Part shown: piece by piece, positions 1,061 through 50,900 of the stretch
Numbering within the stretch: position 1 is the stretch's first letter
How the letters are laid out: every line of letters starts with the position of its first letter
Assembly (NCBI GenBank): GCA_021776775.1
Contig: JAJFFE010000231.1
Location: forward strand, 35,844-99,843
Source of the DNA: Planctomycetota bacterium
GTDB taxonomy: Bacteria > Planctomycetota > UBA8108 > UBA1146 > JAJFFE01
DNA: 64,000 bases
Direction: 5' to 3'
The notes under the pieces: generated by a model
Database searches by the model: none
Told to the model about the DNA's origin: nothing
What the model saw: only the letters and a program-made list of their open reading frames with translations
Made by a program: the position numbers and the translations under genes

Positions 1061-3445
<2,385 letters not shown>

Positions 3446-3523
3446 TCACATACCGACTCCGTCGACGAGATTTTGGCGCGGCGGGCGCTGAGCTCACCGT
3501 CGGATGAGGATCACGAGACAAGT

Positions 3524-3567
3524 GCGAGAACCCCGTGGCTAACACCGCGGGGTTCTCGTGTTTTTTT
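3524..3567 (+). terminator. intrinsic terminator after katG
   Basis: GCGAGAACCCCGTGG-ctaaca-CCGCGGGGTTCTCGT stem followed by T7 (3561-3567), lying between convergent genes. Confidence 0.85.
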
Positions 3568-3581
3568 GGCTCGCCCGAGCG

Positions 3582-5159
3582 TCATCGGGCCGTGCTACGC
3601 TTCTCCAAGTCGTACTGCTGCCCCTTGCGCAGGACGACCGGGTCACTGCCCGACGCGTAGAACGAAACGGCCTGGTCGCCGATCACCTCGGCCGCGGTGC
3701 CACGAACAATGAGCGCGGTATCCTCGTCGACCCCGATGCCCAACATCTGCGGGTAGTTCTTCATCAATTCGACAAACGGTTCGTGGCGATTTCGTTGGAG
3801 AAAGTGGGCGTCGAGGATAACCCCCTCCAACAAACCGAGGCCGGTGGTATATCCGTCGTGGACGAGAGTGCGGTTTGTTCTGGGGTCCCCCCGCACCAAG
3901 AAGTCACCGGCCACTTGGCATCCGGCGGAACTACCGCCGACCACCCCACCTCGAGTGAGGACGTTTCGCATCAGCGCGTGACTCTTGGTGTGCTGGAACG
4001 AATCCATCATGCGATAGGTGCGACCGCCGTCGATCCAAACCCCGCTCGCCTTCTCCAACAACGCGAGCAGTCGAGGGTCCTTATCCGCTTGGTCGGGGTC
4101 ATTCGTATGAATCACGAACACGTTGGCACAACCGTGTTCACGCAGTTCTCGTGCACTGTAGGACCGAGGTTCGTCGCCGGGGTCGAACTCCGCCGCGCTC
4201 GGGATGCAAACGATGGTGGCGTCCTTACCCCCCGCCGCCTCGATGAAACGATTCCACGTCGGACTCTGAACGCCTCCGCCGCCACTGAGGACCAACGTCC
4301 CGCGCGGCACCTTGGGGGTCGGTGCGTTCTCGGGAGGAAACAGCGGTCCCATTCGATCCTGCGCGGAGCGCCGCCACGCGAGCAGATCGACGTCGTAGGA
4401 GAGTTCATCGCCGTACTCGAAGACGTCGACGGCGCGAATCGAAGCGCGGCGCTCGGGCCACCCTTTGGCACCCGCGACCTGCACCACGACTGAGCCGTTC
4501 CCAATGGCGCCGACGCGGCGTCCGTAGTGGATGACCAGCGCGGTCTCCTTGGGGATCTGCCACCCGACCAAGCCGTCGCCACCGGTGAGAATAGGGTCGA
4601 GTTCGCGCGCCGAGCCGCTTTCGTCCGACGTGTTCAAAAGGTGAACGCGAGAGCCGGGAAGAAGACCAAAGCCTTTCGATTTCTTGTCGACACTAAGATT
4701 CGCGAGCGCCATCGAACCGACGCCCTGTCCCCCGACCACCCCTCCGCGCGCGAGCACGTCGCGAAGCAGTGCCGCCGAAACAGTATTCCTCACCAACGCT
4801 TCGGCCTTGTCCTCGAACCAAACACCGCCAGCCTTCAACAGCGCGAGCGTCAGCTTCTTGTCGAGCTTCGCCTTCGCATGGATGACGGTGACCGAACGAG
4901 CACCGCGCAACTTCCAGCGGGCCGCAGATCGCGACTTACCCTTTGGCGCGACAACCACAATGTCTACCTCGAACCCGCCGCCGAGATGCAAAAACGCGTC
5001 GAGCACGGCGTCGGGAGTGTTGCCATGTCCGGCGAGCACCAGAGACCCCGCGATCGGACGGATCGGCTCGGGTGGAAAACTTTGGCGGGCAACGATGTTC
5101 GAGGGGGTAGCAACAAGCGCAAGGACGACGAGGTAGCCAGCAAGTTGGGCGAATCTCAT
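3582..5159 (-). CDS. secreted cyanophycinase-like peptidase (S51 family) with two tandem domains
   Basis: The C-terminal domain has GTLVLSGGG, GGSSAG (Ser nucleophile), DAHFLQRNR and GIGVDEDTAL. The N-terminal copy is degenerate (GGQGVG). Signal-peptide-like start MRFAQLAGYLVVLALVA. Confidence 0.85.
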   Translation of the reverse strand: MRFAQLAGYLVVLALVATPSNIVARQSFPPEPIRPIAGSLVLAGHGNTPDAVLDAFLHLGGGFEVDIVVVAPKGKSRSAARWKLRGARSVTVIHAKAKLDKKLTLALLKAGGVWFEDKAEALVRNTVSAALLRDVLARGGVVGGQGVGSMALANLSVDKKSKGFGLLPGSRVHLLNTSDESGSARELDPILTGGDGLVGWQIPKETALVIHYGRRVGAIGNGSVVVQVAGAKGWPERRASIRAVDVFEYGDELSYDVDLLAWRRSAQDRMGPLFPPENAPTPKVPRGTLVLSGGGGVQSPTWNRFIEAAGGKDATIVCIPSAAEFDPGDEPRSYSARELREHGCANVFVIHTNDPDQADKDPRLLALLEKASGVWIDGGRTYRMMDSFQHTKSHALMRNVLTRGGVVGGSSAGCQVAGDFLVRGDPRTNRTLVHDGYTTGLGLLEGVILDAHFLQRNRHEPFVELMKNYPQMLGIGVDEDTALIVRGTAAEVIGDQAVSFYASGSDPVVLRKGQQYDLEKRSTAR

Positions 5160-37923: not shown

Positions 37924-38072
37924 GTGGAAGGCGTTCACTTCGTGGCCGGACCGTGGTTCACGGTTCAACGCAGCGGTAGCGATTGGCAGCAAATCGGCAC
38001 CCTCTCCCTCAGCGACGGCGGACACCGATCCCGCGCACGCGTCGAGTATCGAATCGAATTGGAGCAATCTTC

Positions 38073-40607
38073 ATGACCCACAAGCAACGCCTCGCCTTCA
38101 CCACGCTTTTTGTCTTCATGAGCGCCCAACTGTCGCCCCTCGTTTGGGCCGACCCGTGCGGCATGGTGCCACCGATGTGGCTCGGCGACGGGCCACCGAT
38201 CACCCGTATCGGTGCGCAGCAGACGTATGTGTTTTACAAAGAAGGTATAGAAACGTTCGTCATCAAGCCCGGCTTCTCGGGCAAAGTCGACGAGTTCGGT
38301 ATGTTGATCCCCTTCCCCACCCCGCCCGCCATCCGCAAGGTTCCGGATGACATCTTCGCGCACCTTGCGGCAGCGATTGATCCCCCGGAGGTGATCGTCG
38401 ATTTACGGCCACGCCCTAAGTTCGAGTGCTTCTCCATGGAGAAGGATTCTCGAAGTGCTGCGCCGTTGATGGCCCAGCGGGATGGCGCCGTCACTGTCAT
38501 TCGCGAAGAGGCGGTCGGCATGTACGAAGTGGCGGTGCTCGATGCAGGAAGCGCCGCAGCCCTGAAGTCGTGGATGGACGAGAATGGGTATCGCTACCCG
38601 TCCGGGATGGACGGCGTCTGCGAGGAGTACGTCGAACAAGGATGGTGCTTTGTTGCGGTCAAGACGAAGGTTGGACAGAAGAACGGAGTCGACCCGAGAC
38701 CCGGTATGCGCTCCGCCGACAGTAAACTCGCCCCCGGATCGACGTTCGACGGCGCCGTGCAAGCGATGGGCTTTCGCTTCGAAACCGACGAGTTCGTTCT
38801 TCCCATGCGTCTCTCGACTTTCAACGAGGGCGACTTGAGCAACGTCGTCTATGTGCTCAGCGACCAACCGCAGCGCATCCGCGGAATCTCCGATGACCGC
38901 GTTCGCCGGCAAATTTCGGGCGACGAACTGTTCCGGAACGTGACTCGGTCGCTCCCGCTGCGCGTTATCGGCGGAACCCCGTCCGACATTCCCACGAGCC
39001 GACTTGCCACGTTGCCCGACGAACGCAATCCACAACCGCACAACGGCTACGCCAAGGATCTTTTCGCATCAGATCTAGCCGCGGTGCGCAACAAGCAACT
39101 CAGCAACGGTTTCGAAGAGACGGAAAAGGAGCTACTCCGGATCAGCGAACGGCTCGGGCTTCGCGGTGCAGACGTCGACGCCCTCCACCACGGCGCCTTG
39201 TCGACGTCGCGTGAAGAAGCGATCTCGGTTTCGCTGAACGATCTGCGGGACATGACGCTCACCGTGATCGACGGTGCGTTCCCGCGAGAGGTGCTGGCCA
39301 ACGACAACCTTCACTTCGAGTCGTTCGCCATGCCGAGCGAGAACAACACGCCGGACACGTACGACGCCAAGATGCGCGGGCCCGCGTTCAAGCGTGGTGG
39401 CTTGGTGTTCTGGGGCGATGACGGAGTGGGTCCCCACTCGAACAACGCCTTGCTCACTCTCATTGCCGCCATCGCCGGTGCGGCGCTGGTTGTCTCCTTC
39501 CTACGCCGCCGACGCACGATTCGTCTCGGGTCTGCCGCGGGTCGCGGGGTTGGACTGGTCATCGTGATGGCTACGATCATCGTCGCGAGCCTCGCCACGA
39601 CGGCGCAACCCGTCTCCGCCCGGGACGACGACGATCCCGTACTTCGAATGGAAGCCCGCTTCGTCGCCGCGCTCGTCGACAGCCTGGGAATCGCCGGGAG
39701 CGCGACAAACGCACTCGACCGCTTGAAGTCGCTCTCACCGGAAGTCACGGTTCCAGCGCTGCTGGGGGAAGCACTCTACGGCAAGCGGCTCGCGTCTCGC
39801 GGCTGGGCTATCGTTGGCCTCGCCGAGATCGGCGGAAGTGCCGCCAACGAGGGACTGACCGAGATTCTCATCGACAGCCAAGCATCGGCACTGTTGCGCA
39901 CCTGGGCGGCGGCCGGGCGTGTGAGCACCGCCACCACCTTCGACGAACTCGGCGCCGTCTTCGGCCTCGCCCAGCAGTACCCTGCGATCCGCCGACCACT
40001 GAAGCTACAGCTCACGCGTATCGTCCCGACGACCCTCGACGGCGCCATCGAACTCATTCAACTCTGTCGAAGAGACCCGTCAGGACTTGGGGCCAGTGCC
40101 GACCTGATCCTCTCCTTGGGTTCTGCGACCTTGACCGACGTCATGCGAACGGCAGCCGACTCAGAAGTAAGGCGCATCGCCGCCGCGAGCTTGGCCAACA
40201 TTGCGATGGCTGGTCGTACGGATGAGGTGGCCGAAGCTGCGCTGACTGCGTATCGATTCGACACGGAGTTGAAGATCGAACCGTGGACGGGAGGTGCGTT
40301 GTTCGTGCCCGGCATCCAGTGGAGCGGCGAATCGGCAAAATCGCTGGTCCGGAATCTCGTCGCATGGCACGTGTGGGCAGATCGCCACGACCGTGCCGAT
40401 CTCAAGCAACAAGTTCACAACAACCTCAATAGCTTGCAACTCGGTCACGCGGCCGGCTACCGGATCCCCCGTCGGACGCTCGACACCGTCGGGTGGCTCG
40501 AGATCTTGGCTCAAGCGTGCGGACGTGAAACCGTGCGAGAAGTTCTGGCGGAACAAGGCGTCGACGGGTTACCGAAGTACGCGACCACTGTTGCCGCTTA
40601 CAGGTAG
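38073..40607 (+). CDS. DUF2330-like domain, two TM helices and a HEAT-like helical domain
   Basis: ADPCGM after the signal, EFGMLIPFPTPP, VGMYEVAVL, WMDENGY, YVEQGWCFVAVK, LPMRLS; paired hydrophobic segments around RRRR; Ala/Leu-rich helical tail. GGAG RBS. Confidence 0.78.
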   Translation: MTHKQRLAFTTLFVFMSAQLSPLVWADPCGMVPPMWLGDGPPITRIGAQQTYVFYKEGIETFVIKPGFSGKVDEFGMLIPFPTPPAIRKVPDDIFAHLAAAIDPPEVIVDLRPRPKFECFSMEKDSRSAAPLMAQRDGAVTVIREEAVGMYEVAVLDAGSAAALKSWMDENGYRYPSGMDGVCEEYVEQGWCFVAVKTKVGQKNGVDPRPGMRSADSKLAPGSTFDGAVQAMGFRFETDEFVLPMRLSTFNEGDLSNVVYVLSDQPQRIRGISDDRVRRQISGDELFRNVTRSLPLRVIGGTPSDIPTSRLATLPDERNPQPHNGYAKDLFASDLAAVRNKQLSNGFEETEKELLRISERLGLRGADVDALHHGALSTSREEAISVSLNDLRDMTLTVIDGAFPREVLANDNLHFESFAMPSENNTPDTYDAKMRGPAFKRGGLVFWGDDGVGPHSNNALLTLIAAIAGAALVVSFLRRRRTIRLGSAAGRGVGLVIVMATIIVASLATTAQPVSARDDDDPVLRMEARFVAALVDSLGIAGSATNALDRLKSLSPEVTVPALLGEALYGKRLASRGWAIVGLAEIGGSAANEGLTEILIDSQASALLRTWAAAGRVSTATTFDELGAVFGLAQQYPAIRRPLKLQLTRIVPTTLDGAIELIQLCRRDPSGLGASADLILSLGSATLTDVMRTAADSEVRRIAAASLANIAMAGRTDEVAEAALTAYRFDTELKIEPWTGGALFVPGIQWSGESAKSLVRNLVAWHVWADRHDRADLKQQVHNNLNSLQLGHAAGYRIPRRTLDTVGWLEILAQACGRETVREVLAEQGVDGLPKYATTVAAYR

Positions 40608-40671: not shown

Positions 40672-40983
40672 GGTCAACCTATTGAGCGGATCTGTCGAGT
40701 CGACGAAAACTACCGGTCCAAGTGCCGCCCTGCGCGAACCCGCTGCGACAAGCCAACGAGTACAGCGAGATCGTCACCTCGTAGAACATCAGCATAGCCG
40801 CCAGGAACCGACAGCGACTCGCGCGATGCGTCCGGCCACGAGACGAGCGACCGAACTCGGTCCCTGCAAGTCGCCCACGCACACCCGGTTCAACTGACAG
40901 TAGGTCACAACCAACACGCGTCTTGGGACAACGCCCGCTCAACGGGTGGTCATTTGCATCCTGACTGCCAGAAGGAGCACACC

Positions 40984-41631
40984 ATGATACAAGAAGCATT
41001 GGAACGACTGAGTCAGTACATGGGCCGACGTCGTTGGCAACCGATCGTACCCGACCTGCTCAGCCAAGATCCCGACACCGCGCGTCAAGACGCTCTCGCC
41101 CAGCTGAAGTCGACCGGGCTGCGACTTTCGTTCGAACGGCTCGAATCGGCCGTTCAAGCCACCGAAACCCCCATTCTCGCAGTGACGTCCCTCGTCGGAC
41201 TTTCCGATCCGAAAACAATACTCATACAGTTCCAAGCCGCGGCCCTCTTCTGGAACCACACTTCCCGTCACGAACTCGGTGGAGCCTCACCGATCGACCA
41301 CCTCAAGAATCGCATCAAACAACGCCCCGACGATGAACCCTGGAAGGTCGCCTCCGAAGAACGCGATCTAGTCGCGATCATCGAAAGCCCCGAACAATTC
41401 AAAGACCTTCCCGAACCCGCCGAGTTCGGTCTCCCCAACGACTTCTTCGATACGTCAGACCTAGCGCAACACGTTTCGGGCCCCGTAACGATCGAAGAAC
41501 TCCCCAACGCGCGAAAGCGCAAAACAAGAAAGCTCCAACACACTCCCAAGCCGCGCATCTCCCGCAACCAAAAGTGCCCCTGCCGGAGCGGCAGCAAATA
41601 CAAGAACTGCTGTGCAAGGAGTAACGGCTAG
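40984..41631 (+). CDS. SEC-C metal-binding motif protein
   Basis: C-terminal ISRNQKCPCRSGSKYKNCC; AAGGAG RBS before ATG 40984. Confidence 0.85.
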   Translation: MIQEALERLSQYMGRRRWQPIVPDLLSQDPDTARQDALAQLKSTGLRLSFERLESAVQATETPILAVTSLVGLSDPKTILIQFQAAALFWNHTSRHELGGASPIDHLKNRIKQRPDDEPWKVASEERDLVAIIESPEQFKDLPEPAEFGLPNDFFDTSDLAQHVSGPVTIEELPNARKRKTRKLQHTPKPRISRNQKCPCRSGSKYKNCCARSNG

Positions 41632-42124
41632 CCCGACCGAGAAATGAGAAGCGACGCGCCACGACGTATCCGCCATCTCATCATGAGCTTGGCGGCCCTG
41701 GCGGATCTCGGCGGCTTAGCGAGAGATAGGCCGCTCAGGTCTTGGGACCTGAATCACTGGAGCTGAATCGCAAGGCTATGCGTTGGTCATTTATTAACGC
41801 GGCTCGAAGGCCCTTTTGCCGGGCGCATCGTGCCGTGCCGAATGACGCGCCAGCATGACGTGTGGCTCAACCCTGGGGGTCACGGGGCAAGAACCTGAAC
41901 GCCAGGCCTGGCTACGCCTAAACTCCAACCTATGAGCGAGAGATAGCGTGATAAACAGCTCGTCCTCAGCGGTGCGAAGCGGCATGGCAGTTGGATGCGC
42001 TGATCGTTTCGCTTTCGTCGCTTGGCCCATTCTCGCGAGGCGCCAAGAACCGCAAAGGCCGCAAAATAGGCTTTGCCCCACGGGGCATGGCTCTCCCACT
42101 CGACTCCCACGCAGTCATCCGCAA

Positions 42125-43498
42125 TCAGTCGCGGAAGTCGAAACGGCCGTCTAGCTCATCGAGGCCGCCTTCTATTTCCCGTCGATACCGGTCGAGGACA
42201 TAACTCCCGTAGAGATCCTCATAGCAGCTGCGGTCGAGCAACTTCTTCAGACCACTCAGTCGATCGAGCCAGAACTTTTGCTCTCGCGCATCGAGGCGCC
42301 GCCGAGCAAACGCGTAGAGATCGGCGTAGGCCATGAACGTGAGGCTAGGGTTGTTCATGAGGTGGACCCGCGAAACCAAGTCCTCGTACGCCTCCTTGAG
42401 ATGCTCCGACGGCGCCCCGTCGTCCAACAACAGGCGCGCCTGAAATCCGAGAAGCCTGGTGCGCGCATCGATGCATCCACGCTCCTCTGCTTCCATGAGC
42501 AGCTCTGCAGTGCGCGCAAAAACGGTGTCGTAGTCCTGTTCGCGCAGCGCGAACTCGACGAGTCCGAGCTTTGCGTAAAGGATCCCTGTGTAAAACGGCG
42601 GTTCTAGCTGCTCGAACAACTCAATCGCGTAGCGGAATAGGTGCTTTCCTTCGTCTTTGTTCCCCCAAAGCGTGTCGAGCTTCGCAGACAGTAACACCAG
42701 ATAAGCTCCGTACTGACGAAACACGTCTGGGTTGGTATCGATCAGGTCTTTCGCCTCGGCGAGTTCATAGTTAGCCTTGGCAAGAACCTGCAAATACAGC
42801 GCTGCTTCACTTGCCATCAGGTGGGAGTGAATCAGAGTCGCAACGTCCCCCTGTTTTGCCGCCGCGCGTCGAAATTCGCCATTGGAAAGCTCGCCCAAAG
42901 CCGCGCGAAACTGACCAGCACTCAAGAGTAGTCCACCGTAAACGAACCGATAGGAAGCTCCGAAGCAAAGCTCGTTCTGATCACAGGCTTCGATTGCGCC
43001 TAGGAGCTTCCTGGTCGCTCGTCGGAAGTCTCCGCATTGCTGATATGCAAAACCAAGCCAATGCTGAATCATCGCGTCGAGCACAAGCGCGAGTGGAGAG
43101 TTGCCTCCGCAATCGACTGCCTCAAGGGCCGTGATCGCTTCGTTGAACCGTTCTTCTCGAAGCCAGTCGATGCAGCCAACGAGGGTGGCGACGCTGACCA
43201 AGAATCGATCCTCCTTGAGCTCTGCCAAGGACCGTATGGTGGAAGATAGTCCAGGGGACGAATTGCGGCCAGAACTGCTGTTGACGACGTATCTCAGTGT
43301 CTGCAGTCGACGCATCTCGGCATCCACCGACAACAGCGACGGTAGTTCATCAGCACGCACAAGTTCTATAACTCTGAGATCGGCGATCGCAGCTTTGGCC
43401 TCGGACGTCCCAAGGCCTAATTCTTCAAGGTGCAATACGACGGCCTCAAGGCTCCGCCTCTGGAAAAAGGCCAGAGTCGTTCTTGAGTCGAGAGTCAC
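42125..43498 (-). CDS. TPR-like all-helical hypothetical protein (cassette copy 2)
   Basis: TPR-like segments (HWLGFAYQQCGDFRRA); clear paralogue of 44424-45806; GGGGAGG RBS. Confidence 0.8.
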   Translation of the reverse strand: MTLDSRTTLAFFQRRSLEAVVLHLEELGLGTSEAKAAIADLRVIELVRADELPSLLSVDAEMRRLQTLRYVVNSSSGRNSSPGLSSTIRSLAELKEDRFLVSVATLVGCIDWLREERFNEAITALEAVDCGGNSPLALVLDAMIQHWLGFAYQQCGDFRRATRKLLGAIEACDQNELCFGASYRFVYGGLLLSAGQFRAALGELSNGEFRRAAAKQGDVATLIHSHLMASEAALYLQVLAKANYELAEAKDLIDTNPDVFRQYGAYLVLLSAKLDTLWGNKDEGKHLFRYAIELFEQLEPPFYTGILYAKLGLVEFALREQDYDTVFARTAELLMEAEERGCIDARTRLLGFQARLLLDDGAPSEHLKEAYEDLVSRVHLMNNPSLTFMAYADLYAFARRRLDAREQKFWLDRLSGLKKLLDRSCYEDLYGSYVLDRYRREIEGGLDELDGRFDFRD

Positions 43499-43510
43499 CC
43501 TGCCTCCCCC

Positions 43511-44158
43511 CTAGTCAATAGACAGCGGACCAAAACCGGCAAGCCCCAAGTCAGTAGCGCTCACCCGAAGAAATATCTCGTCGGTCGCACCAACGTATCT
43601 GATCACGAGGATCTTACGGTTCGACGAAACGAGAGTTGGATCCGGAAGCGCAAAGATCGTGCGGACGGAGAGTCCACGGTCGATCGGTTCCAATAGACGT
43701 GCGGGACTCGATCCCAGCACATGGACCAAGAACGCGTAGCACGAGGCGTCCCATACGACGACGTTGTTGTCCGGCGGTCCGTTTCCGGCCGCGACAGGAA
43801 AGCGGAAGGAATCGGAAGCCGACAGCTGGCCAGTCGCACAGTGGTAGTGAGCGAACGCCGCGTCGGATCCCGAGCCCGGTGCTGGCGAACGGCGCGCCTG
43901 GTACAGCGTCCCGAACCCGAATGGAACACCGACGAAACTCAACGACACGGGTCCCACGGCGAGTTCGGACTCTACGTCGGAGCGAAATGCGACGTTCGTC
44001 GCGACGGAGTGTAGAATCGCCCAATCGGCAGCACTCGTTAGCGCGGGAGAGCCGGGTGGGAAGACAACGGTTTGGCCAACCAACAACAGCGGGAGCGAGC
44101 AGCTGGCAACCAAGATCCAAGCAGCGACGCTCGGTGATCTCTTCTTGCGATCAGACAC
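43511..44158 (-). CDS. exported/membrane-anchored hypothetical protein (cassette copy 2)
   Basis: GTG 44158 after AAGGGA; basic plus hydrophobic N-terminus; paralogue of 45819-46490; ends GFGPLSID. Confidence 0.75.
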   Translation of the reverse strand: MSDRKKRSPSVAAWILVASCSLPLLLVGQTVVFPPGSPALTSAADWAILHSVATNVAFRSDVESELAVGPVSLSFVGVPFGFGTLYQARRSPAPGSGSDAAFAHYHCATGQLSASDSFRFPVAAGNGPPDNNVVVWDASCYAFLVHVLGSSPARLLEPIDRGLSVRTIFALPDPTLVSSNRKILVIRYVGATDEIFLRVSATDLGLAGFGPLSID

Positions 44159-44423
44159 GGTTCCGATCCCTTCGGGTGGATGCCCACGTAACGCCACCGG
44201 CACGTCTCCGCTGACGGCCGCCTCGCTTCTCCCCGTTATCCGCGTACTTCTTACCCCGCTCCCATAATAGGCGCGGCACCCGGAGGCATCCAGCGGTCCG
44301 CTGGACTCGGCGCCGCAGAGCGGCCGAAAAGTACGCTTACGCCTGTCAGAGACCAGCGTCACTCATTCGAGAACAAGCGGATTCGCACTGCTGGGTGGCC
44401 GGGAGCAACCCCGCACCGCTGAA

Positions 44424-45806
44424 TCAGTCGTCGGTGTCCAAGCGCCACTGCGCGTCCGAAAGCCCGGCTTCGATCTCGATCCGGTAGCGCTCGAGAACGT
44501 AGTCGCGATAGAGATCCTCGTAGCAGCTACGCTCGAGAACCGACTGTAGACCATGGAGCCGCGCCAACCAGAACGACTGCTCTGGGCGATCGAGATGCTT
44601 CCGCGCGAATGCATACAGATGCGCGTACGCCATGAAGGTGAGCCGCGGATTGTTCATGAGGTGAACGCGCGACACCAGGTTGTCGTAGCCTTCTCGCAAC
44701 CTGTCGGCTGGGACCGCCTCGTCCATGAACAGCTTCGCTTCGAACGCAAGAAGCCGAGTTCGCGCGTCCATACAACCACGCTGCTCGGCCTCGTCGAGCA
44801 ACTCGCCCACGCGCTGAAAGACGATGGTGTACCGACCGTCGCGCGCAGCGAACTTCACGAGTTCCAACTTGGCATCGAGGACAGCACTGTAGAGCGGAGG
44901 ATCCAACGCTTCGAACAACTCGATCGCGTGGTTGTACAGGTGGGCCGCCTCTGCGGTGTTTCCCCAAAGCGTGTCGAGTTTCGCCGAGAGTAGCACGAGA
45001 TACCCTCGGTAATGTCCGAGCCGCTCCTGGTTCTCTTCGATGAGATTCTGGAGCTCACACAGCTCGTAGCTTGCCTTCGAAGTCGCGGTCAAACAGAGGG
45101 CGGCTTCGGTTGAGACGAGGTGTGAGTATGCCAAAGTATCGAGATCGTTCTGATTCCGCGTTTCTCGTCGAAGCTCTTCGTCGCCCAACAGCAGGACCGC
45201 ACGGCGGAATTGACCGGACGCCACCAAGAGGGCCCCGCGGGCGGTGCGATAGGACCAGCGGACACAGAAGTCGGCAGCGTCGGCGACGCCGATCGACTCT
45301 TCAAGCTCTCGGTCCGCTCTCTGGAAATCACCACGGCGCTGATACGCCCACCCCAGCCAGTGCTTCTTTATGCAGTGAACGAAGCTCGCGAAGGAGCCCA
45401 GCGCGGCGTCTGGGACTGTGGCGATTCGCTCGAGACGCACGGTTGCCTCGACGAAGTTCAACTCACTCAGGAGATCTTTGGCACCAGCGACTTTCGCAAG
45501 GCTGAGGAGCTGTTCGTCACCAAACCGACGCGCAAACACGTGGATAACACGAGCGAGATCCAGTCCGAACCGCCGGGCTTCACGACCATTCAAGACGTAG
45601 CGAACGATCAGTAGCCGCGCAACCTCCGGGTTGTAGCAGTACTCGGAAAGCACAGCCTCGAGCTGTGCGATCGTCGCTCCTTCGACTCGTTCAGCTTGCT
45701 CGTATTGCCACTCGGGAACGGAGAGACCTTCTTCCCGCGCCAGTTGACGAACGGCGGATAGACTCCGACGGCGAAGGAAGGTGAGCAGAACATCGTTCGT
45801 TGTCAT
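44424..45806 (-). CDS. TPR-like all-helical hypothetical protein (cassette copy 1)
   Basis: HWLGWAYQRRGDFQRA; C-terminal half closely matches 42125-43498; AAGGGG RBS. Confidence 0.8.
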   Translation of the reverse strand: MTTNDVLLTFLRRRSLSAVRQLAREEGLSVPEWQYEQAERVEGATIAQLEAVLSEYCYNPEVARLLIVRYVLNGREARRFGLDLARVIHVFARRFGDEQLLSLAKVAGAKDLLSELNFVEATVRLERIATVPDAALGSFASFVHCIKKHWLGWAYQRRGDFQRADRELEESIGVADAADFCVRWSYRTARGALLVASGQFRRAVLLLGDEELRRETRNQNDLDTLAYSHLVSTEAALCLTATSKASYELCELQNLIEENQERLGHYRGYLVLLSAKLDTLWGNTAEAAHLYNHAIELFEALDPPLYSAVLDAKLELVKFAARDGRYTIVFQRVGELLDEAEQRGCMDARTRLLAFEAKLFMDEAVPADRLREGYDNLVSRVHLMNNPRLTFMAYAHLYAFARKHLDRPEQSFWLARLHGLQSVLERSCYEDLYRDYVLERYRIEIEAGLSDAQWRLDTDD

Positions 45807-45818
45807 GTTCGCCCCTTC

Positions 45819-46490
45819 CTATTCGATCGTCAGAGGGCCGAAGCCGGTCGGAAAGGCTTCCGCTCGAACCGTCACGAGGAAACCGGTCGACGGCCCGACG
45901 TACTTGAGAACCAAGAGTTGCTGGCTCGCCTGAGCAGACGCACTCGTGTCCGGGAGGCAAACGATACGCTTGAGTTCAAACCCCGCACGCAGCGGATCGA
46001 TCAGCCGCCCGGGACGGACGCCGAGTACGTGTCGCAGAAACTGATAACTTTCCAATCCCCAGATCACGACGTTCGAATCGGCAACGGTGTCGTTTCCAGA
46101 CGTCATCCGGAACTTGAACTGATCGACCGAAGGATTGATCGGCAGCGACCTGTTCACGTAAGAAAACAGGAGCGTTGAAAGTTGCCCGAACGGCGATCTA
46201 AAGTTCCAACGACCCCCGCACCGTCTACTACTACCGTCGTCTTCACACGTCATACGCCCGAAGCAGGGTCCCACCGCGAAGCACGCTTCAGAAACGAGAG
46301 CGAACGCGGGGTCGGAAACCAGTTGATCGAAAATCAGCCAGTCGAGCTCTGAGCTAAGGACGGGTGAGCCCGGAGGATCGGGCACGACCTGCGCCACAAC
46401 CCACAGGGGCAAGACAAGGATCAACGAAACGAAAGCAGCCCGCACATAGCGAGCAGGCTTGCTGCGTTTGGATTCAGCCACGGATGTCAT
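45819..46490 (-). CDS. exported/membrane-anchored hypothetical protein (cassette copy 1)
   Basis: Basic plus hydrophobic N-terminus ending VVAQ; ends GFGPLTIE; paralogue of 43511-44158. Confidence 0.78.
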   Translation of the reverse strand: MTSVAESKRSKPARYVRAAFVSLILVLPLWVVAQVVPDPPGSPVLSSELDWLIFDQLVSDPAFALVSEACFAVGPCFGRMTCEDDGSSRRCGGRWNFRSPFGQLSTLLFSYVNRSLPINPSVDQFKFRMTSGNDTVADSNVVIWGLESYQFLRHVLGVRPGRLIDPLRAGFELKRIVCLPDTSASAQASQQLLVLKYVGPSTGFLVTVRAEAFPTGFGPLTIE

Positions 46491-46883
46491 CCATCCCCAT
46501 TGGGAGACGTTTTTTTGGGTTCGCCAAAGCGTAGATGTCGCTGGCGAAGTCTCAGAGCCTTGGCCGGATAGTAGGAAGAGTGGAAAACCAGTTCCACAGG
46601 TTCACCGCAAACGCCCGATATTGATTAAACTCAATCGTGGGTGCGATGCGTCGATCGACGAACCTGTGGTTGATTTGGGCTCTGGTCGTTGAGGATGGCG
46701 AAGCGCGAACCTGCGCAGTCCGCGCTGAGCATCGGAGCTCGGCCGAAACGTCGGCGGCACGGTCGCGCGGTACATGGCAAATTGCGACCGGATCCTCACT
46801 CCGCGCTATCTCGCGAAGACGATCATCGGGTCGAGCATCCCTCGGTCTCGTCGCTTGGTGAGCGGCTCAATGCCGCGGAGCGA

Positions 46884-48161
46884 CTACGCGACGCACACCT
46901 CCGAGACGACCTCGCCAACATGCGAACCGCCGTGAAACCAGAAGGTGGTTCCTTCACCGGGTTCCGATTCGACGGTGATGTCGCCACCGAGGCTTTCGAC
47001 GAGCTTCGTGACGATAGCGAGCCCGGCCCCGGCCCCGCCTCCGTACTCGTTCCCAGAGTGAAGTCGGCGAAAGACGTCGAAGATCGCGGCTTGATTGGCC
47101 GAGTCGATGCCGATTCCGTTATCCCGAACGTAGAACCGTCCGTCGCCCGGTTCGCCGCTTTCGGTCCCCGTCTCGAACCCGATCTCTATCCAACGATTCG
47201 CCTTGTCGTTGTACTTCAGCGCATTCGTGACAAGGTTACGGAACACTTCGGCAATCGCGACTTCATAGCCGTGAACCACCGGCAGCGTGGCCGCAACGCG
47301 CACCTCGGTCTGAGTATCGTCGATCGAAAACTGCAGTGACTCCAATACGCGCTCGACCACCTGCTGCGTGTTGACGTCGGCCTTCGACTCTTGGCCCCGT
47401 CCCGCCTTGGAATACTCGAGCAGTGAGTCGACCATGTGCTCCATACGGTCTGTCAACTTGGCAAGTACCTCCAGCTGCCCGACTCCCGCTTGACCCAATT
47501 CCGCGCCGTAGTCTTCGATGAGAAACTGAGAGTAGTGTCGCAAGCCCCGCAGCGGCTCTTTGAGATCGTGCGAGGCGATGTGGCAGAAGTCGTCGAGCTG
47601 CCGATTCGCAGCCTCGAGACGTAGAGTGGCTTCCTGCATACGTCTCTGGTGCTCGCGAGACTCCAACAAGCTGAGCCGCAGCCCTAGAACCGTGGACACT
47701 TGCCGAGACAACGCCTCGAGGATTTCTCGTTGCTCCTCATTCAAGACTCGTGGCTTGGAGTCGATGACGCACAGGGTTCCGAGGGCCGCTCCGTCGGGAG
47801 TGACGAGGGGTGCGCCGGCGTAGAAGCGAATGCTCGGATCTTCGAGAACCAAAGGGTTGTCCGAGAAGCGCTCGTCGCAAGTCGCGTCTGAAACCACCAA
47901 TGTTTCGTCGGGCGTCAGGATAGCGTGCGCACAAAACGCTAGGTCCCGGCTAGTCTCGGTGGCATCGATCCCCACCTTGGACTTGAACCATTGACGCTCG
48001 CCGTCCACCAGACTTACCAGCGCGATGGGAGTCCCGCAAATGCTCGCAGCAATCTTGACGATGTCGTCGTATTCCCGTTCCGGCAACGTGTCGAGGATCT
48101 CGTACCGCTTTAGCGATCGAACTCGCGCGTCTTCGTTGGCCGGATGAGGTGCCTTGGGCAT
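46884..48161 (-). CDS. GAF-domain sensor histidine kinase
   Basis: YEILDTLPE, RQWFKS, AFCAHAI, IRFYAGAPL, ASHDLKEPLR, NLVTNALKY, DNGIGI, GAGLAI. Confidence 0.95.
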   Translation of the reverse strand: MPKAPHPANEDARVRSLKRYEILDTLPEREYDDIVKIAASICGTPIALVSLVDGERQWFKSKVGIDATETSRDLAFCAHAILTPDETLVVSDATCDERFSDNPLVLEDPSIRFYAGAPLVTPDGAALGTLCVIDSKPRVLNEEQREILEALSRQVSTVLGLRLSLLESREHQRRMQEATLRLEAANRQLDDFCHIASHDLKEPLRGLRHYSQFLIEDYGAELGQAGVGQLEVLAKLTDRMEHMVDSLLEYSKAGRGQESKADVNTQQVVERVLESLQFSIDDTQTEVRVAATLPVVHGYEVAIAEVFRNLVTNALKYNDKANRWIEIGFETGTESGEPGDGRFYVRDNGIGIDSANQAAIFDVFRRLHSGNEYGGGAGAGLAIVTKLVESLGGDITVESEPGEGTTFWFHGGSHVGEVVSEVCVA

Positions 48162-48270: not shown

Positions 48271-49353
48271 TCAATATGGCCCCTCGGCCGACGTCACACG
48301 CAACGGTAGCCGAACGATGATCTCCGACTGTCCCTCGACGAAGTCCAGGAACGATACGTCGCCGCCGTGGATCGACACGACCCGTTGGGCGACGTAGAAC
48401 CCTAAATCCATGATCTCGCCGGTGTTCGAAGCCAAGTCCGGCGCAATCCCGGCGTCGCCGATGGGGAACCTGACTTGAACGAATTCTTCGTCTTCGGACG
48501 TCACTTCGATCGCTACGGCGTGCCCCTTCGTCAACGAGGCGGCGGCTACTTCCACGACATGAGTCAGTGCGGTCTGCAACCAGTGAGTATCGACTCGGAG
48601 CTCAGGGTCCATGGTCATGGGCGATAGCTCGAGGAGGTCGCCGCGACTGGCGATGACCGACTCGAGGACGACGCTCAGCTTTGTGGTGACGGGGCGAATC
48701 GTGTCGCGGCCAAACCCGACTTTCGTCGCTTGGACCAAGGTCTCAATAGCCTGCTCGACCCGCCGACGTTCCTCCAGCGAAGCCAGAGCGCACTCCCGCT
48801 GCATGTCGCTCAGGGAGCCCGAGAGCCCGGCGATCAAGGCCAATTCCGCCTCGCGGCCGGCGGCCAATTGCGACTGCGCCTGACCCGCGATGTATTGACA
48901 CAAGCCCTCGAGTTCTTGAGCGCGCTCTGCGGCGCGCGTCGCCTCGTTTTGTTCGACTTCCCGGCGTCGATTGGCCTCGAAGGCGTTGTTCAAGGCGCGT
49001 TGTAGCTCGCTTCCGCTAACCCCGGACTTCAGCAAGTAGTCGGCGGCACCCGCGTGAATCGCTTCGACGGCAGCGTCCTCGCCGGCTCCACCGGTCAGGA
49101 CAATGACGGGCGCCGACACGCCGAGCTCCAAGAGCTCGCGAAGGACGTCGAGTCCACTGACCATGCCCAGGTTGTAGTCGAGAAAGATGACGTCCACTTC
49201 AAACGTCGGGAGCGCGGCAACCGCGGCTTCCGGATCTTCGTATGAAGTAAACGAGAGCGGGCCGGGGGTCAGCCGAGACAAGAACCGTTCGAGAATCTTG
49301 CTGTCGATCGGGTTGTCATCGACGGAGACCACCTTCAGGGCGCTCTGGATCAT
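48271..49353 (-). CDS. response regulator receiver fused to a degenerate histidine-kinase core
   Basis: Receiver motifs VSVDDN, FLDYNL, LTG and DYLLK. The C-terminal part keeps DLGFYVAQRVVSIHGGDV but has no H-box His or N-box Asn. Confidence 0.75.
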   Translation of the reverse strand: MIQSALKVVSVDDNPIDSKILERFLSRLTPGPLSFTSYEDPEAAVAALPTFEVDVIFLDYNLGMVSGLDVLRELLELGVSAPVIVLTGGAGEDAAVEAIHAGAADYLLKSGVSGSELQRALNNAFEANRRREVEQNEATRAAERAQELEGLCQYIAGQAQSQLAAGREAELALIAGLSGSLSDMQRECALASLEERRRVEQAIETLVQATKVGFGRDTIRPVTTKLSVVLESVIASRGDLLELSPMTMDPELRVDTHWLQTALTHVVEVAAASLTKGHAVAIEVTSEDEEFVQVRFPIGDAGIAPDLASNTGEIMDLGFYVAQRVVSIHGGDVSFLDFVEGQSEIIVRLPLRVTSAEGPY

Positions 49354-49793
49354 GGTCCGGCCAATCCAATGGAAGGAAGCGACGCTAAGCAGCGCCAAAT
49401 CGTAGCATCTCGCTTGAACGCGGGACAAACGTGTAACGGACGCCTGACGACTAACCCCGCGCTTCATTAGTCCTTTCGGAATAAACATTGAGTCGCTGAA
49501 TGGGTATTTCGCCGACCGCCCGGCGGAGTTATAGGAGCTTGGGCGTACGGCGGGAGCGCGCCCCCCTGGACTATCCAAGCGTCGATCGCGCTGATGCTCG
49601 AACCGCGCCCGGTCCCGCGGCGAGACGGCGGCGAGACGGCGAAGCCAACTTGCGCATCTCGGTCAAATTACGGCGACCGTCCTCGAACGCACGTCCTCCG
49701 GAAGCAGCGAACCTCACCACAAGTCGTGCTGCGTAGGGCAATCGGGCGCGACTCGGGCCCATTCTCATCTCTCCGCCGAACCAGACGGGGGTT

Positions 49794-49826: not shown

Positions 49827-49895
49827 GCTGAGCATCGAACCTTGCGCACGGGGGCTTTGGTTTTGTTCTCAATTTGAACTCTGGGGAGAGTCTTG

Positions 49896-50900
49896 ATGAC
49901 AGATGAGCCGCAACTATATAGGTCTGCCGAGGGAGACTATCTGAGTCGGTGGAAACGTGTTGTCTTCTTGGATCAGCGGTTTCGGGATGGATCGTTTCCC
50001 AATGCGACGGAGTTGGCCGGGATTTGTGGCGTTTCGACGAAGACGATTCACCGCGATATCGAGGCGATGCGTTTGGAGTTGTCGGCGCCGATTGAGTTCG
50101 TGAAGGCCGAGAACGGCTATCGATACACGGATGGTGATTTCGCCATACCGGCGGCGACGCTTTCGGAACGTAACTTGTTTGCACTGATGGTGGCGGAGAA
50201 TGCCATCGCCAATTACGAAGGTACGCCACTGGTCGAGTATCTGCGTGAAGCGTTCGGCAAGATTCTGTCGGTACTTCCCGGTGACGTGCGTGAAAAGCAC
50301 GAACTCGGGGCTCGAGCGATTCGCTTCGGAGGACTTCCCGCTCCGCGGATCCGTCCGGATGTATGGAACTCAGTCGCACGAGCAATTCGCGACCAGCGGG
50401 CCATAGATGTAATGTATCGCAAGCCGGGAAAGCCGTCGGGCACTCGGGCGTTGCACCCGTACCTCTTGGTCGTACGAGAGCGCGACTGGTTCTTGATCGC
50501 CCGAGATCCTGATCGAGACGCAGTGTTGACCTACTATGTGCCTCGGATCGACTCGGTCACGGTGCTCGATGAAGAGTTCGAAATCGAACGGGACTTCTCG
50601 GCGGCCGAGTACTACCGATTCGGTTTCAACGCCATGCAAAGTCATGCCGACGCGGACGAAGTGGTGCTTCACTTCGCGTCCGACGCAGCCCACTTGGCGC
50701 AAGAGCGCGCGTGGTCGCCTGATCAGCACGTCGACGTCGACCACGACGGATCGGCGCGAGTTCGCTTTCACTCTTCGGCACTCTTTGCGATTCAACGCGC
50801 GGTGCTTCAGTACGGAGGCGAGGTCACGGTGGAGGCGCCGCCGGCACTACGCGACGGGGTACGAAGCGCGGCGGAACGAATAATCGCGTCACACGGCTAG
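49896..50900 (+). CDS. WYL-domain transcriptional regulator (HTH-WYL-WCX)
   Basis: ATELAGICGVSTKTIHRDIE (HTH), ALHPYLL...DWFLIA...YYVPRI (WYL), VLQYGGEVTVEAPPALR (WCX). Confidence 0.93.
   Translation: MTDEPQLYRSAEGDYLSRWKRVVFLDQRFRDGSFPNATELAGICGVSTKTIHRDIEAMRLELSAPIEFVKAENGYRYTDGDFAIPAATLSERNLFALMVAENAIANYEGTPLVEYLREAFGKILSVLPGDVREKHELGARAIRFGGLPAPRIRPDVWNSVARAIRDQRAIDVMYRKPGKPSGTRALHPYLLVVRERDWFLIARDPDRDAVLTYYVPRIDSVTVLDEEFEIERDFSAAEYYRFGFNAMQSHADADEVVLHFASDAAHLAQERAWSPDQHVDVDHDGSARVRFHSSALFAIQRAVLQYGGEVTVEAPPALRDGVRSAAERIIASHG

Follow-up and report, generated by a model that had tools for sequence, protein, structure and literature searches.

A co-inherited gene pair for a predicted exported protein and a cytoplasmic TPR protein in an order of uncultured Planctomycetota

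Introduction

As far as the accessible text of the pertinent papers goes, the sensing of secreted, gene-encoded peptides by cytoplasmic tetratricopeptide repeat (TPR) receptors is regarded as particular to Firmicutes/Bacillota with their plasmids and phages, and RRNPP(A) systems are described from these bacteria and from the mobile elements that they carry (PMC9765709, PMC12700828, PMC10075063). The criteria given in the accessible text set the RRNPP receptor at 250–500 aa and the propeptide at 10–100 aa, the validated propeptides being of 21–50 aa (PMC10075063). The origin of the RRNPPA family is presented as open in the part of the literature available to us, where a remote structural outgroup is also said to be of help in rooting this family (PMC12700828). 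In this work, we analyzed a locus of a Planctomycetota bacterium (GenBank assembly GCA_021776775.1), located within a 64,000-nucleotide stretch of the contig JAJFFE010000231.1 (hereafter referred to as the window), in which the minus strand carries four consecutive open reading frames (ORFs) that form two tandem cassettes, S1-L1 and S2-L2. In each cassette, a gene of a small, predicted exported protein (S) is followed by a gene of a large, cytoplasmic TPR protein (L). No RRNPP-type system in Planctomycetota was found in the accessible literature, which did not cover the candidate tables in supplements.

The S-L pair resembles clan B of RRNPP(A), i.e., NprR-NprX and Rap-Phr, in its cytoplasmic receptor-like protein with about nine TPR-like repeats (457–480 aa), in the directly adjacent partner gene, the product of which is predicted to be Sec-exported, and in cassettes that multiply and diverge within one genome. 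It differs in its host, which belongs to a diderm order of Planctomycetota and not to the Firmicutes/Bacillota from which RRNPP systems are described in the available text (PMC9765709, PMC12700828), and in the partner, as S is a protein of 215–260 aa modelled with two folded domains and not a propeptide of the 10–100 aa given in the accessible criteria (PMC10075063). Moreover, in the S-L pair the exported gene comes first, L does not belong to the RRNPP(A) proteins by sequence, and no helix-turn-helix (HTH) domain is recognizable in it.

Other described systems share particular features with this locus. The enterococcal sex pheromone cCF10, which PrgX senses, originates by cleavage of the signal peptide of the lipoprotein CcfA; there, as would be the case in the function proposed below for S and L, a full-size exported protein is the precursor of a peptide read by a cytoplasmic TPR receptor, but the precursor gene is unlinked, whereas S and L are translationally coupled and the processing of S is only proposed. 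The class II TPR chaperones of type III secretion (SycD/LcrH, SicA, and IpgC) are proteins of about 150–170 aa with three TPRs, which depend on a type III system and become co-activators once their substrate is gone. They are likewise cytoplasmic TPR proteins, encoded beside the secreted protein that they bind, and can double as regulators, while L has 460 aa, the signal of S is of the Sec type, and the vicinity of the pair contains no conserved secretion-system genes. As regards other long TPR solenoids that bind peptides (LGN/Pins, APPBP2, and domain III of MalT), they come from eukaryotes or belong to a STAND ATPase, and none of them has a paired exported partner gene.

We found that S and L form an old, strictly linked two-gene module and represent two co-inherited protein families not previously described. 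The observation is real and broader than could be seen from the window alone: the pair of an exported partner and a cytoplasmic TPR protein is conserved in an order of uncultured Planctomycetota and amplified in its largest genome, and the predicted shape of the TPR protein is nearest to that of the peptide-pheromone receptors known from Gram-positive bacteria.

Linkage of S and L across the order

For the comparative analysis, 34 genomes of the same order of uncultured Planctomycetota as the window genome were screened with two profiles, A1 (built of 18 S sequences; cut-off E ≤ 1e-5) and A2 (22 L sequences; cut-off E ≤ 1e-10). L was found in 29 and S in 27 of these genomes: both were present in 27, L only in two, S only in none, and neither in five. 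The two L-only genomes are 81% complete and carry just fragments of L at contig ends. The five genomes without S and L are 79–94% complete, and since these assemblies are incomplete and the pair often lies within 1–3 kb of contig ends, its absence from them is not established.

The linkage of the two genes is strict. Of the 40 S matches, 39 are immediately followed by an L match in the same orientation, the only S match without an adjoining L being a 96-residue fragment alone on its contig. S also adjoins L in all 16 larger loci whose upstream DNA is included, and in the family of small genomes the S stop codon overlaps the L start (gap of −3) in 13 of 13 resolvable loci. Direct reading of the DNA upstream of L in the relatives revealed an exported ORF of 230–260 aa, while the conserved-neighbor search found no gene beyond S and L common to different genera. 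The approximately 3-Mb genomes of this sister family (24 of 28 with L) mostly have one copy of the pair, with synteny within genera. The co-occurrence of the two families, which the initial annotation had proposed for examination, is thus found throughout the survey. The opposite, i.e., independence of S and L, was suggested by a single-sequence search with S1, which among 60 relatives recovered the partner in one (E 1.9e-10) together with one chance-level match, and this was overturned by the profile search. At the locus L045 (G010:C35), the S and L matches look split; the locus has a masked stretch, translated as X, and therefore offers no evidence for a broken gene.

Outside the order, only weak L matches were obtained among 27 other genomes of the class and phylum. 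When the L profile was compared with 1.84 billion representative proteins, 58 of them reached E 1e-30, and among the 150 best matches listed, those ranked below about E 1e-27 were increasingly long multi-repeat TPR proteins. The named relatives of L were all labelled as metagenome-assembled genomes of Planctomycetota, Planctomycetia, or "uncultured bacterium". The named clusters were "hypothetical protein" or "TPR repeat protein", and a 36-aa member of one cluster was called "nucleoid DNA-binding protein".

The two cassettes of the window and their multiplication

The coordinates of the tandem cassettes are summarized in Table 1. The longest ORF of S2, starting with GTG, spans 43511–44362 (283 aa), and its homology with S1 begins only at about residue 70. 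A GTG codon at 44158, preceded by GAAGGGA, gives a protein of 215 aa with a normal N-terminus; the S2 gene is therefore likely 43511–44158, although the position of its start is uncertain.

Table 1. Features of the S1-L1 and S2-L2 cassettes (positions in the window).
Feature	Coordinates	Strand	Description
S1	45819–46490	minus	Small exported protein, copy 1; 223 aa; examined as ORF, by alignment, AlphaFold2 (AF2) model, and fold searches
S1-L1 spacer	45807–45818	minus	GAAGGGGCGAAC; S1 stop to L1 ATG, 12 nt; purine-rich, resembling a ribosome-binding site
L1	44424–45806	minus	All-helical cytoplasmic protein, copy 1; 460 aa; examined as ORF, by alignment, AF2 model, Foldseek, and PDB profile
Intergenic region	44159–44423	minus	L1 stop to likely S2 start; alternative GTG at 44362 would extend S2 into this region
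S2	43511–44158	minus	Small exported protein, copy 2; 215 aa from GTG at 44158; frame open to 44362
S2-L2 spacer	43499–43510	minus	GGGGGAGGCAGG; S2 stop to L2 GTG, 12 nt; purine-rich, contains GGAGG
L2	42125–43498	minus	Cytoplasmic TPR protein, copy 2; 457 aa; GTG start

S1 and S2 share 34% identity (E 1e-30; 219 alignment columns), and L1 and L2 share 48% (E 9e-136; 455 alignment columns). What the initial annotation had stated about this layout was confirmed: the cassette occurs twice with identical spacing, both S-to-L spacers being exactly 12 nt, all of the motifs quoted for the small and large proteins are visible in the S1/S2 and L1/L2 alignments, and the large proteins have diverged N-termini and similar C-halves, as their identity rises from 32% (residues 1–130) through 42% (131–270) to 64% (271–460). 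A contig built independently from a public sequencing run matches positions 41907–47000 with no differences. One DNA run and no RNA run were listed for the region. The tandem layout is therefore independent of one assembler, but the run is possibly the source of the window DNA and hence not an independent sample. Within 41000–47500, no Rfam match was found at E ≤ 0.1, and a scan for promoters and terminators around the pair gave counts no higher than the shuffle level.

The window genome (8.6 Mb in 420 contigs, 92% complete) carries six S-L cassettes and one diverged cassette. S matches were found at six places, two of them in the window and the others on contigs C131, C306, C200, and C63, each directly upstream of L. 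L matches were found at eight places; the L pieces at the ends of C147 and C158 possibly belong to the C63 and C200 cassettes as their missing parts. Contig C136 bears a seventh L-like gene of greater divergence; this gene is preceded by an exported ORF with the same kind of Ala/Gly-Gln junction, which is not detected by the S profile. The cassette has thus multiplied and diverged within this genome, in tandem in the window and dispersed elsewhere, in agreement with the diversification by duplication proposed before from the window. The identities of S and L co-vary over 15 pairs (r 0.94), which is expected for linked genes and is therefore not independent evidence, and the mean pairwise identity is 0.27 for S vs. 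0.34 for L.

Diverged L-like paralogs are also present in the family of large genomes, i.e., L069 (second copy of G004:C33), L070 (G004:C104), and L071 (G002:C49), with L-profile E-values of 1e-50 to 1e-104. No S gene was detectable upstream of these three, and their HLINNP motif is altered in L070 and L071 and kept in L069. At the last-mentioned locus (1925–3700), the open frame runs upstream through a hydrophobic stretch.

Large protein L

The relatives of L1 and L2 have 446–488 aa, and L lacks a signal peptide. The AF2 model of L1 (predicted local distance difference test score (pLDDT) 88.5; predicted TM-score (pTM) 0.87) is all-helical, with 26 helices, and comprises an N-terminal helical part (residues ~1–130) followed by about nine TPR-like helix pairs extending to about residue 440. 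In a search with the sequence profile of L against PDB, consensus TPR proteins (E 8.7e-16) and RapJ (E 9.5e-5 over ~90 TPR residues) were matched, the latter being the sole named RRNPP member found by sequence. Single Pfam TPR models remained under their cut-offs for L, no Pfam or NCBIfam family reached its cut-off with L1 or L2, and ten longer or more distant relatives of L gave TPR families only in Pfam. The matches in the ESM Atlas were generic TPR clusters. No sequence membership of L was found in the Rap, Rgg, NprR, PlcR, PrgX, or AimR subfamilies.

Application of the Foldseek tool gave the top TM-scores with Rap proteins (0.61–0.66 on the target), and in the structure comparison the best matches were NprR and Rap, over nearly the whole chain (residues 54–422 of the L model align to 66–418 of the NprR chain), with AimR lower. 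This accords with the initial annotation, in which L was regarded as a TPR protein to be compared with the RRNPP receptors. It must be added that high Z-scores are easily reached by helical repeats and that other long TPR solenoids, i.e., APPBP2 (Z 21.6–21.7), TSK (21.8), LGN (20.7–21.6), and MalT domain III (20.6), follow the RRNPP receptors by only 1–4 Z units. For these reasons, L is not called an RRNPP homolog here, and the safe statement is that it is predicted to be a nine-repeat TPR solenoid of the peptide-binding type, the closest solved shapes of which are NprR and Rap.

The N-terminal output domain of RRNPP receptors is an HTH or, in Rap, a three-helix bundle. In the model, residues 1–55 of L (four helices) occupy the place of the NprR HTH, as judged by the aligned ranges only. 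The initial annotation had seen a loose resemblance to an XRE-type HTH at the N-terminus of L1, which was not borne out, as no HTH was recognized by sequence within residues 1–130 (one of 14 members matched HTH_18 at E 0.041, i.e., at chance level), and a PDB profile of the 130 N-terminal residues retrieved nothing below E 0.16. The C-terminal third of L is conserved, with R349, R351, R380, N386, P387, and C428 being invariant.

Small protein S

The S proteins, including the relatives of the window copies, have 215–260 aa, of which about 190 residues would remain in the mature form. All 30 N-termini examined with sequence rules contain basic residues, a hydrophobic stretch, and a small residue followed by Gln, and the residue preceding Gln is A, G, or S in 29 of them and Thr in one (L042). 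Such an N-terminus has the appearance of a Sec signal peptide that is cleaved at a type I site. S1 is composed of a signal peptide (~1–33), Gln34, a Pro-rich tail of low model confidence, and two alpha+beta domains (46–138 and 145–223). In the alignment of 18 S sequences (14–48% identity to S1), invariance is limited to three residues: Gln34, with which the mature protein is predicted to begin, Pro39, and Tyr111.

The AF2 model of S1 has a pLDDT of 85.8 and a pTM of 0.78, and shows the mature protein as two similar units, each consisting of two helices on a curved antiparallel sheet. The confidence is low in residues 1–40 (pLDDT ~50–56), including the stretch with Gln34 and Pro39 (~52). As two of the three invariant residues fall in a stretch modelled as flexible and rich in proline, they constitute a possible short recognition motif. 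The terminal motif GFGPLTIE, the counterpart of which in the sister family is ..LEVQP, forms, in the model, short beta-bridges that pack against the second domain (pLDDT ~96). Two earlier suppositions are thereby weakened, namely that this terminal 8-mer is a free peptide and that S is a precursor of the Phr/PapR kind, since the models point to a conserved, folded two-domain protein and not to a short propeptide. Two cysteines, one per unit, are conserved and common to S of the small-genome family, and S1 has five; judging from their occurrence, these residues fit an oxidizing, extracytoplasmic location.

S1 and S2 gave nothing above the cut-offs in Pfam or NCBIfam and no match in PADLOC or PHROGs, so that, in line with the initial annotation, where the system was called unknown, neither S nor L is assigned to a characterized family by any of these four resources. 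A PDB sequence profile search with S had no matches at E ≤ 1, no enzyme or toxin fold was recognizable in the fold searches, and the best score in the ESM Atlas (0.88) is a lead only. The modelled fold of S has no confident relative among solved structures.

Proposed function of the S-L pair

We tentatively favor, as a possibility that may well prove wrong, the reading of S-L as a self-contained cognate module of an exported ligand and a cytoplasmic TPR receptor, i.e., as a variant of the RRNPP logic. S would be made with a cleavable Sec signal peptide and leave the cytoplasm, while L, translated from the same message directly behind S, would stay there as a solenoid with about nine TPR repeats and an NprR/Rap-like fold, in the inner groove of which an extended peptide segment derived from S would bind. 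As this ligand, we favor the Pro-rich tail at the N-terminus of mature S, modelled as flexible, which contains two of the three residues invariant in the 18-protein alignment; the second candidate is the acidic C-terminal end of S. The segment might be released outside and taken up again, its binding might alter the action of the variable N-terminal helical part of L on a target, and duplication of the cassette would then yield diverged cognate pairs. OppA-type binding proteins are encoded in all 34 genomes of the order and also in 11 of 14 control genomes; being near universal, they are non-specific, and their presence, compatible with re-import, only removes an objection. A complex prediction for L (A2) with mature S (A1, 34–223) scored 0.00 in two runs, which is below the mark but was obtained without controls and weighs neither way. 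A narrower version of the proposal, in which RRNPP-type intracellular peptide sensing exists outside Bacillota, with a nine-TPR, NprR/Rap-like receptor and a ligand cut from a co-translated, folded, Sec-exported protein of 190 aa, appears unlikely.

Four of the five RRNPP signature criteria in the accessible text are shared by S-L, i.e., a Sec-exported partner, a receptor of 250–500 aa, TPRs, and direct adjacency, but the fifth, a small propeptide, is lacking, S being folded and of 215–260 aa (PMC10075063). Because one defining feature is missing and L has no sequence membership, S-L was not filed as an RRNPP member. Further observations weigh against a ligand-receptor role. The order of the genes, with the exported one first, is the reverse of that in rap-phr, nprR-nprX, and plcR-papR. 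No DNA-binding or other output domain is recognizable in L by sequence, and the N-terminal part, in which an output would be sought, is the least conserved (mean column conservation of 0.33–0.43 vs. 0.56–0.72 in residues 261–440), whereas the most conserved part of L would face a very variable S partner. S is kept as a two-domain fold across the order, which implies a function of its own, and its C-terminal motif is, in the model, a part of this fold, with packed strands rather than a free tail. Finally, most of the ~3-Mb genomes with the pair have it as a single copy, a pattern closer to that of a lineage-specific housekeeping function than to that of a social trait. Of the signalling pair envisaged in the initial annotation, the TPR nature and RRNPP-like shape of L, the strict co-occurrence, and the diversifying duplication have stood, the HTH and the free terminal 8-mer have not, and the mechanism itself is a proposal.

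Several of these observations can be read differently. L may bind the S precursor in the cytoplasm before export, as a dedicated holdase/escort or as a switch freed once S is exported, in the manner of the class II TPR chaperones described above. The S-then-L gene order, with stop/start overlap or a 12-nt spacer, would favor a co-translational meeting of the products, and such a role is also consistent with the cytoplasmic location of L and its shape of a peptide-binding solenoid, with the placement of invariant S residues at the junction of the signal peptide and the mature protein, and with the strict co-occurrence of both genes. We nevertheless consider it rather improbable, given that the signal peptide of S is of an ordinary Sec type, that no special secretion genes are conserved nearby, that the TPR secretion chaperones known so far are about one-third as large as L, and that dedicated chaperones for Sec substrates are, to our knowledge, rare. 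It is similarly doubtful that the two proteins are only co-regulated, acting in the same pathway without physical contact, with S having a task of its own in the periplasm or at the surface and L being a cytoplasmic scaffold or regulator with unlinked partners. S, the whole fold of which is conserved, would in such a case bind or inhibit something via its cystatin/NTF2/PepSY-like halves, the conserved region 271–460 of L, with its invariant Arg, Asn, and Cys, suggests a conserved partner, unlike the variable S, and the three L-like paralogs without detectable S (the second copy of G004:C33, G004:C104, and G002:C49) point in the same direction. However, across the order S and L are each other's only conserved neighbor, they are translationally coupled, and they were duplicated jointly as cassettes.

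The initial annotation had also mentioned an effector/immunity pair, and a toxin-immunity or anti-phage defense pair diversifying via duplication might be expected to leave what is seen in the window genome, i.e., several diverged cassettes, some of them at contig ends, with S evolving faster than L by mean pairwise identity. This function is, in our opinion, very improbable: none of the four proteins was recognized in PADLOC (no family at E ≤ 1) or PHROGs, S has no recognizable enzyme or toxin fold, the ~3-Mb sister-family genomes mostly have one copy of the pair, in a context kept within genera, and a cytoplasmic TPR protein of 460 aa would be an unlikely immunity factor for an exported protein.

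Flanking DNA and neighboring genes

Directly upstream of S1, genes encoding a GAF-HisKA-HATPase kinase (46884–48161, minus strand) and a REC-HATPase protein (48271–49578, minus strand) were identified, and a gene of a REC-LuxR response regulator precedes the cassette on C131. Among the five cassette loci of the window genome that were examined, two have two-component genes directly upstream; as the other three have unrelated neighbors, a link between two-component systems and S-L is not established. The flanks in general differ between the cassettes of this genome. On the plus strand of the window, we identified genes of an 874-aa protein with DUF2330 (37983–40607), a 225-aa protein with a SEC-C motif at its end (40954–41631), and an HTH-WYL-WCX regulator (49893–50900).

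Between the gene of the SEC-C-motif protein and L2, at 41684–42065, a dispersed repeat with a unit of about 100 nt is present in three head-to-tail copies. With a 485-nt query, 50 matches were obtained over many contigs of the window genome (68–96% identity), and the contig depth is 48–63 at the repeat vs. 8.1 in its flanks. It looks like an intergenic element of the miniature inverted-repeat transposable element (MITE) or repetitive extragenic palindromic (REP) type, with no Rfam match. In some relatives, short tandem arrays with a period of 13–21 nt and 3–16 copies of differing units are placed beside S-L (L032, 5594–5730 and 8041–8120; L033, 8945–9150; L034, 8956–9257 and 11365–11453; L023, 45–140; L043, 11394–11450). 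Their participation in the S-L system was considered and set aside, as arrays of this kind are also present at other positions of these loci; perhaps they characterize these genomes in general, and they may explain the frequent position of the pair within 1–3 kb of a contig end.

Conclusions

At minimum, S and L add two new, co-inherited protein families to the Planctomycetota, one of them with a predicted fold for which solved structures offer no confident relative. The pair is a testable candidate for an outgroup of RRNPP, for an independent invention of the same logic, or for a new, secretion-coupled cytoplasmic partner. If the ligand-receptor function is true, RRNPP-type sensing in Planctomycetota could be the remote structural outgroup for rooting RRNPPA that is called for in the accessible text on this family (PMC12700828).

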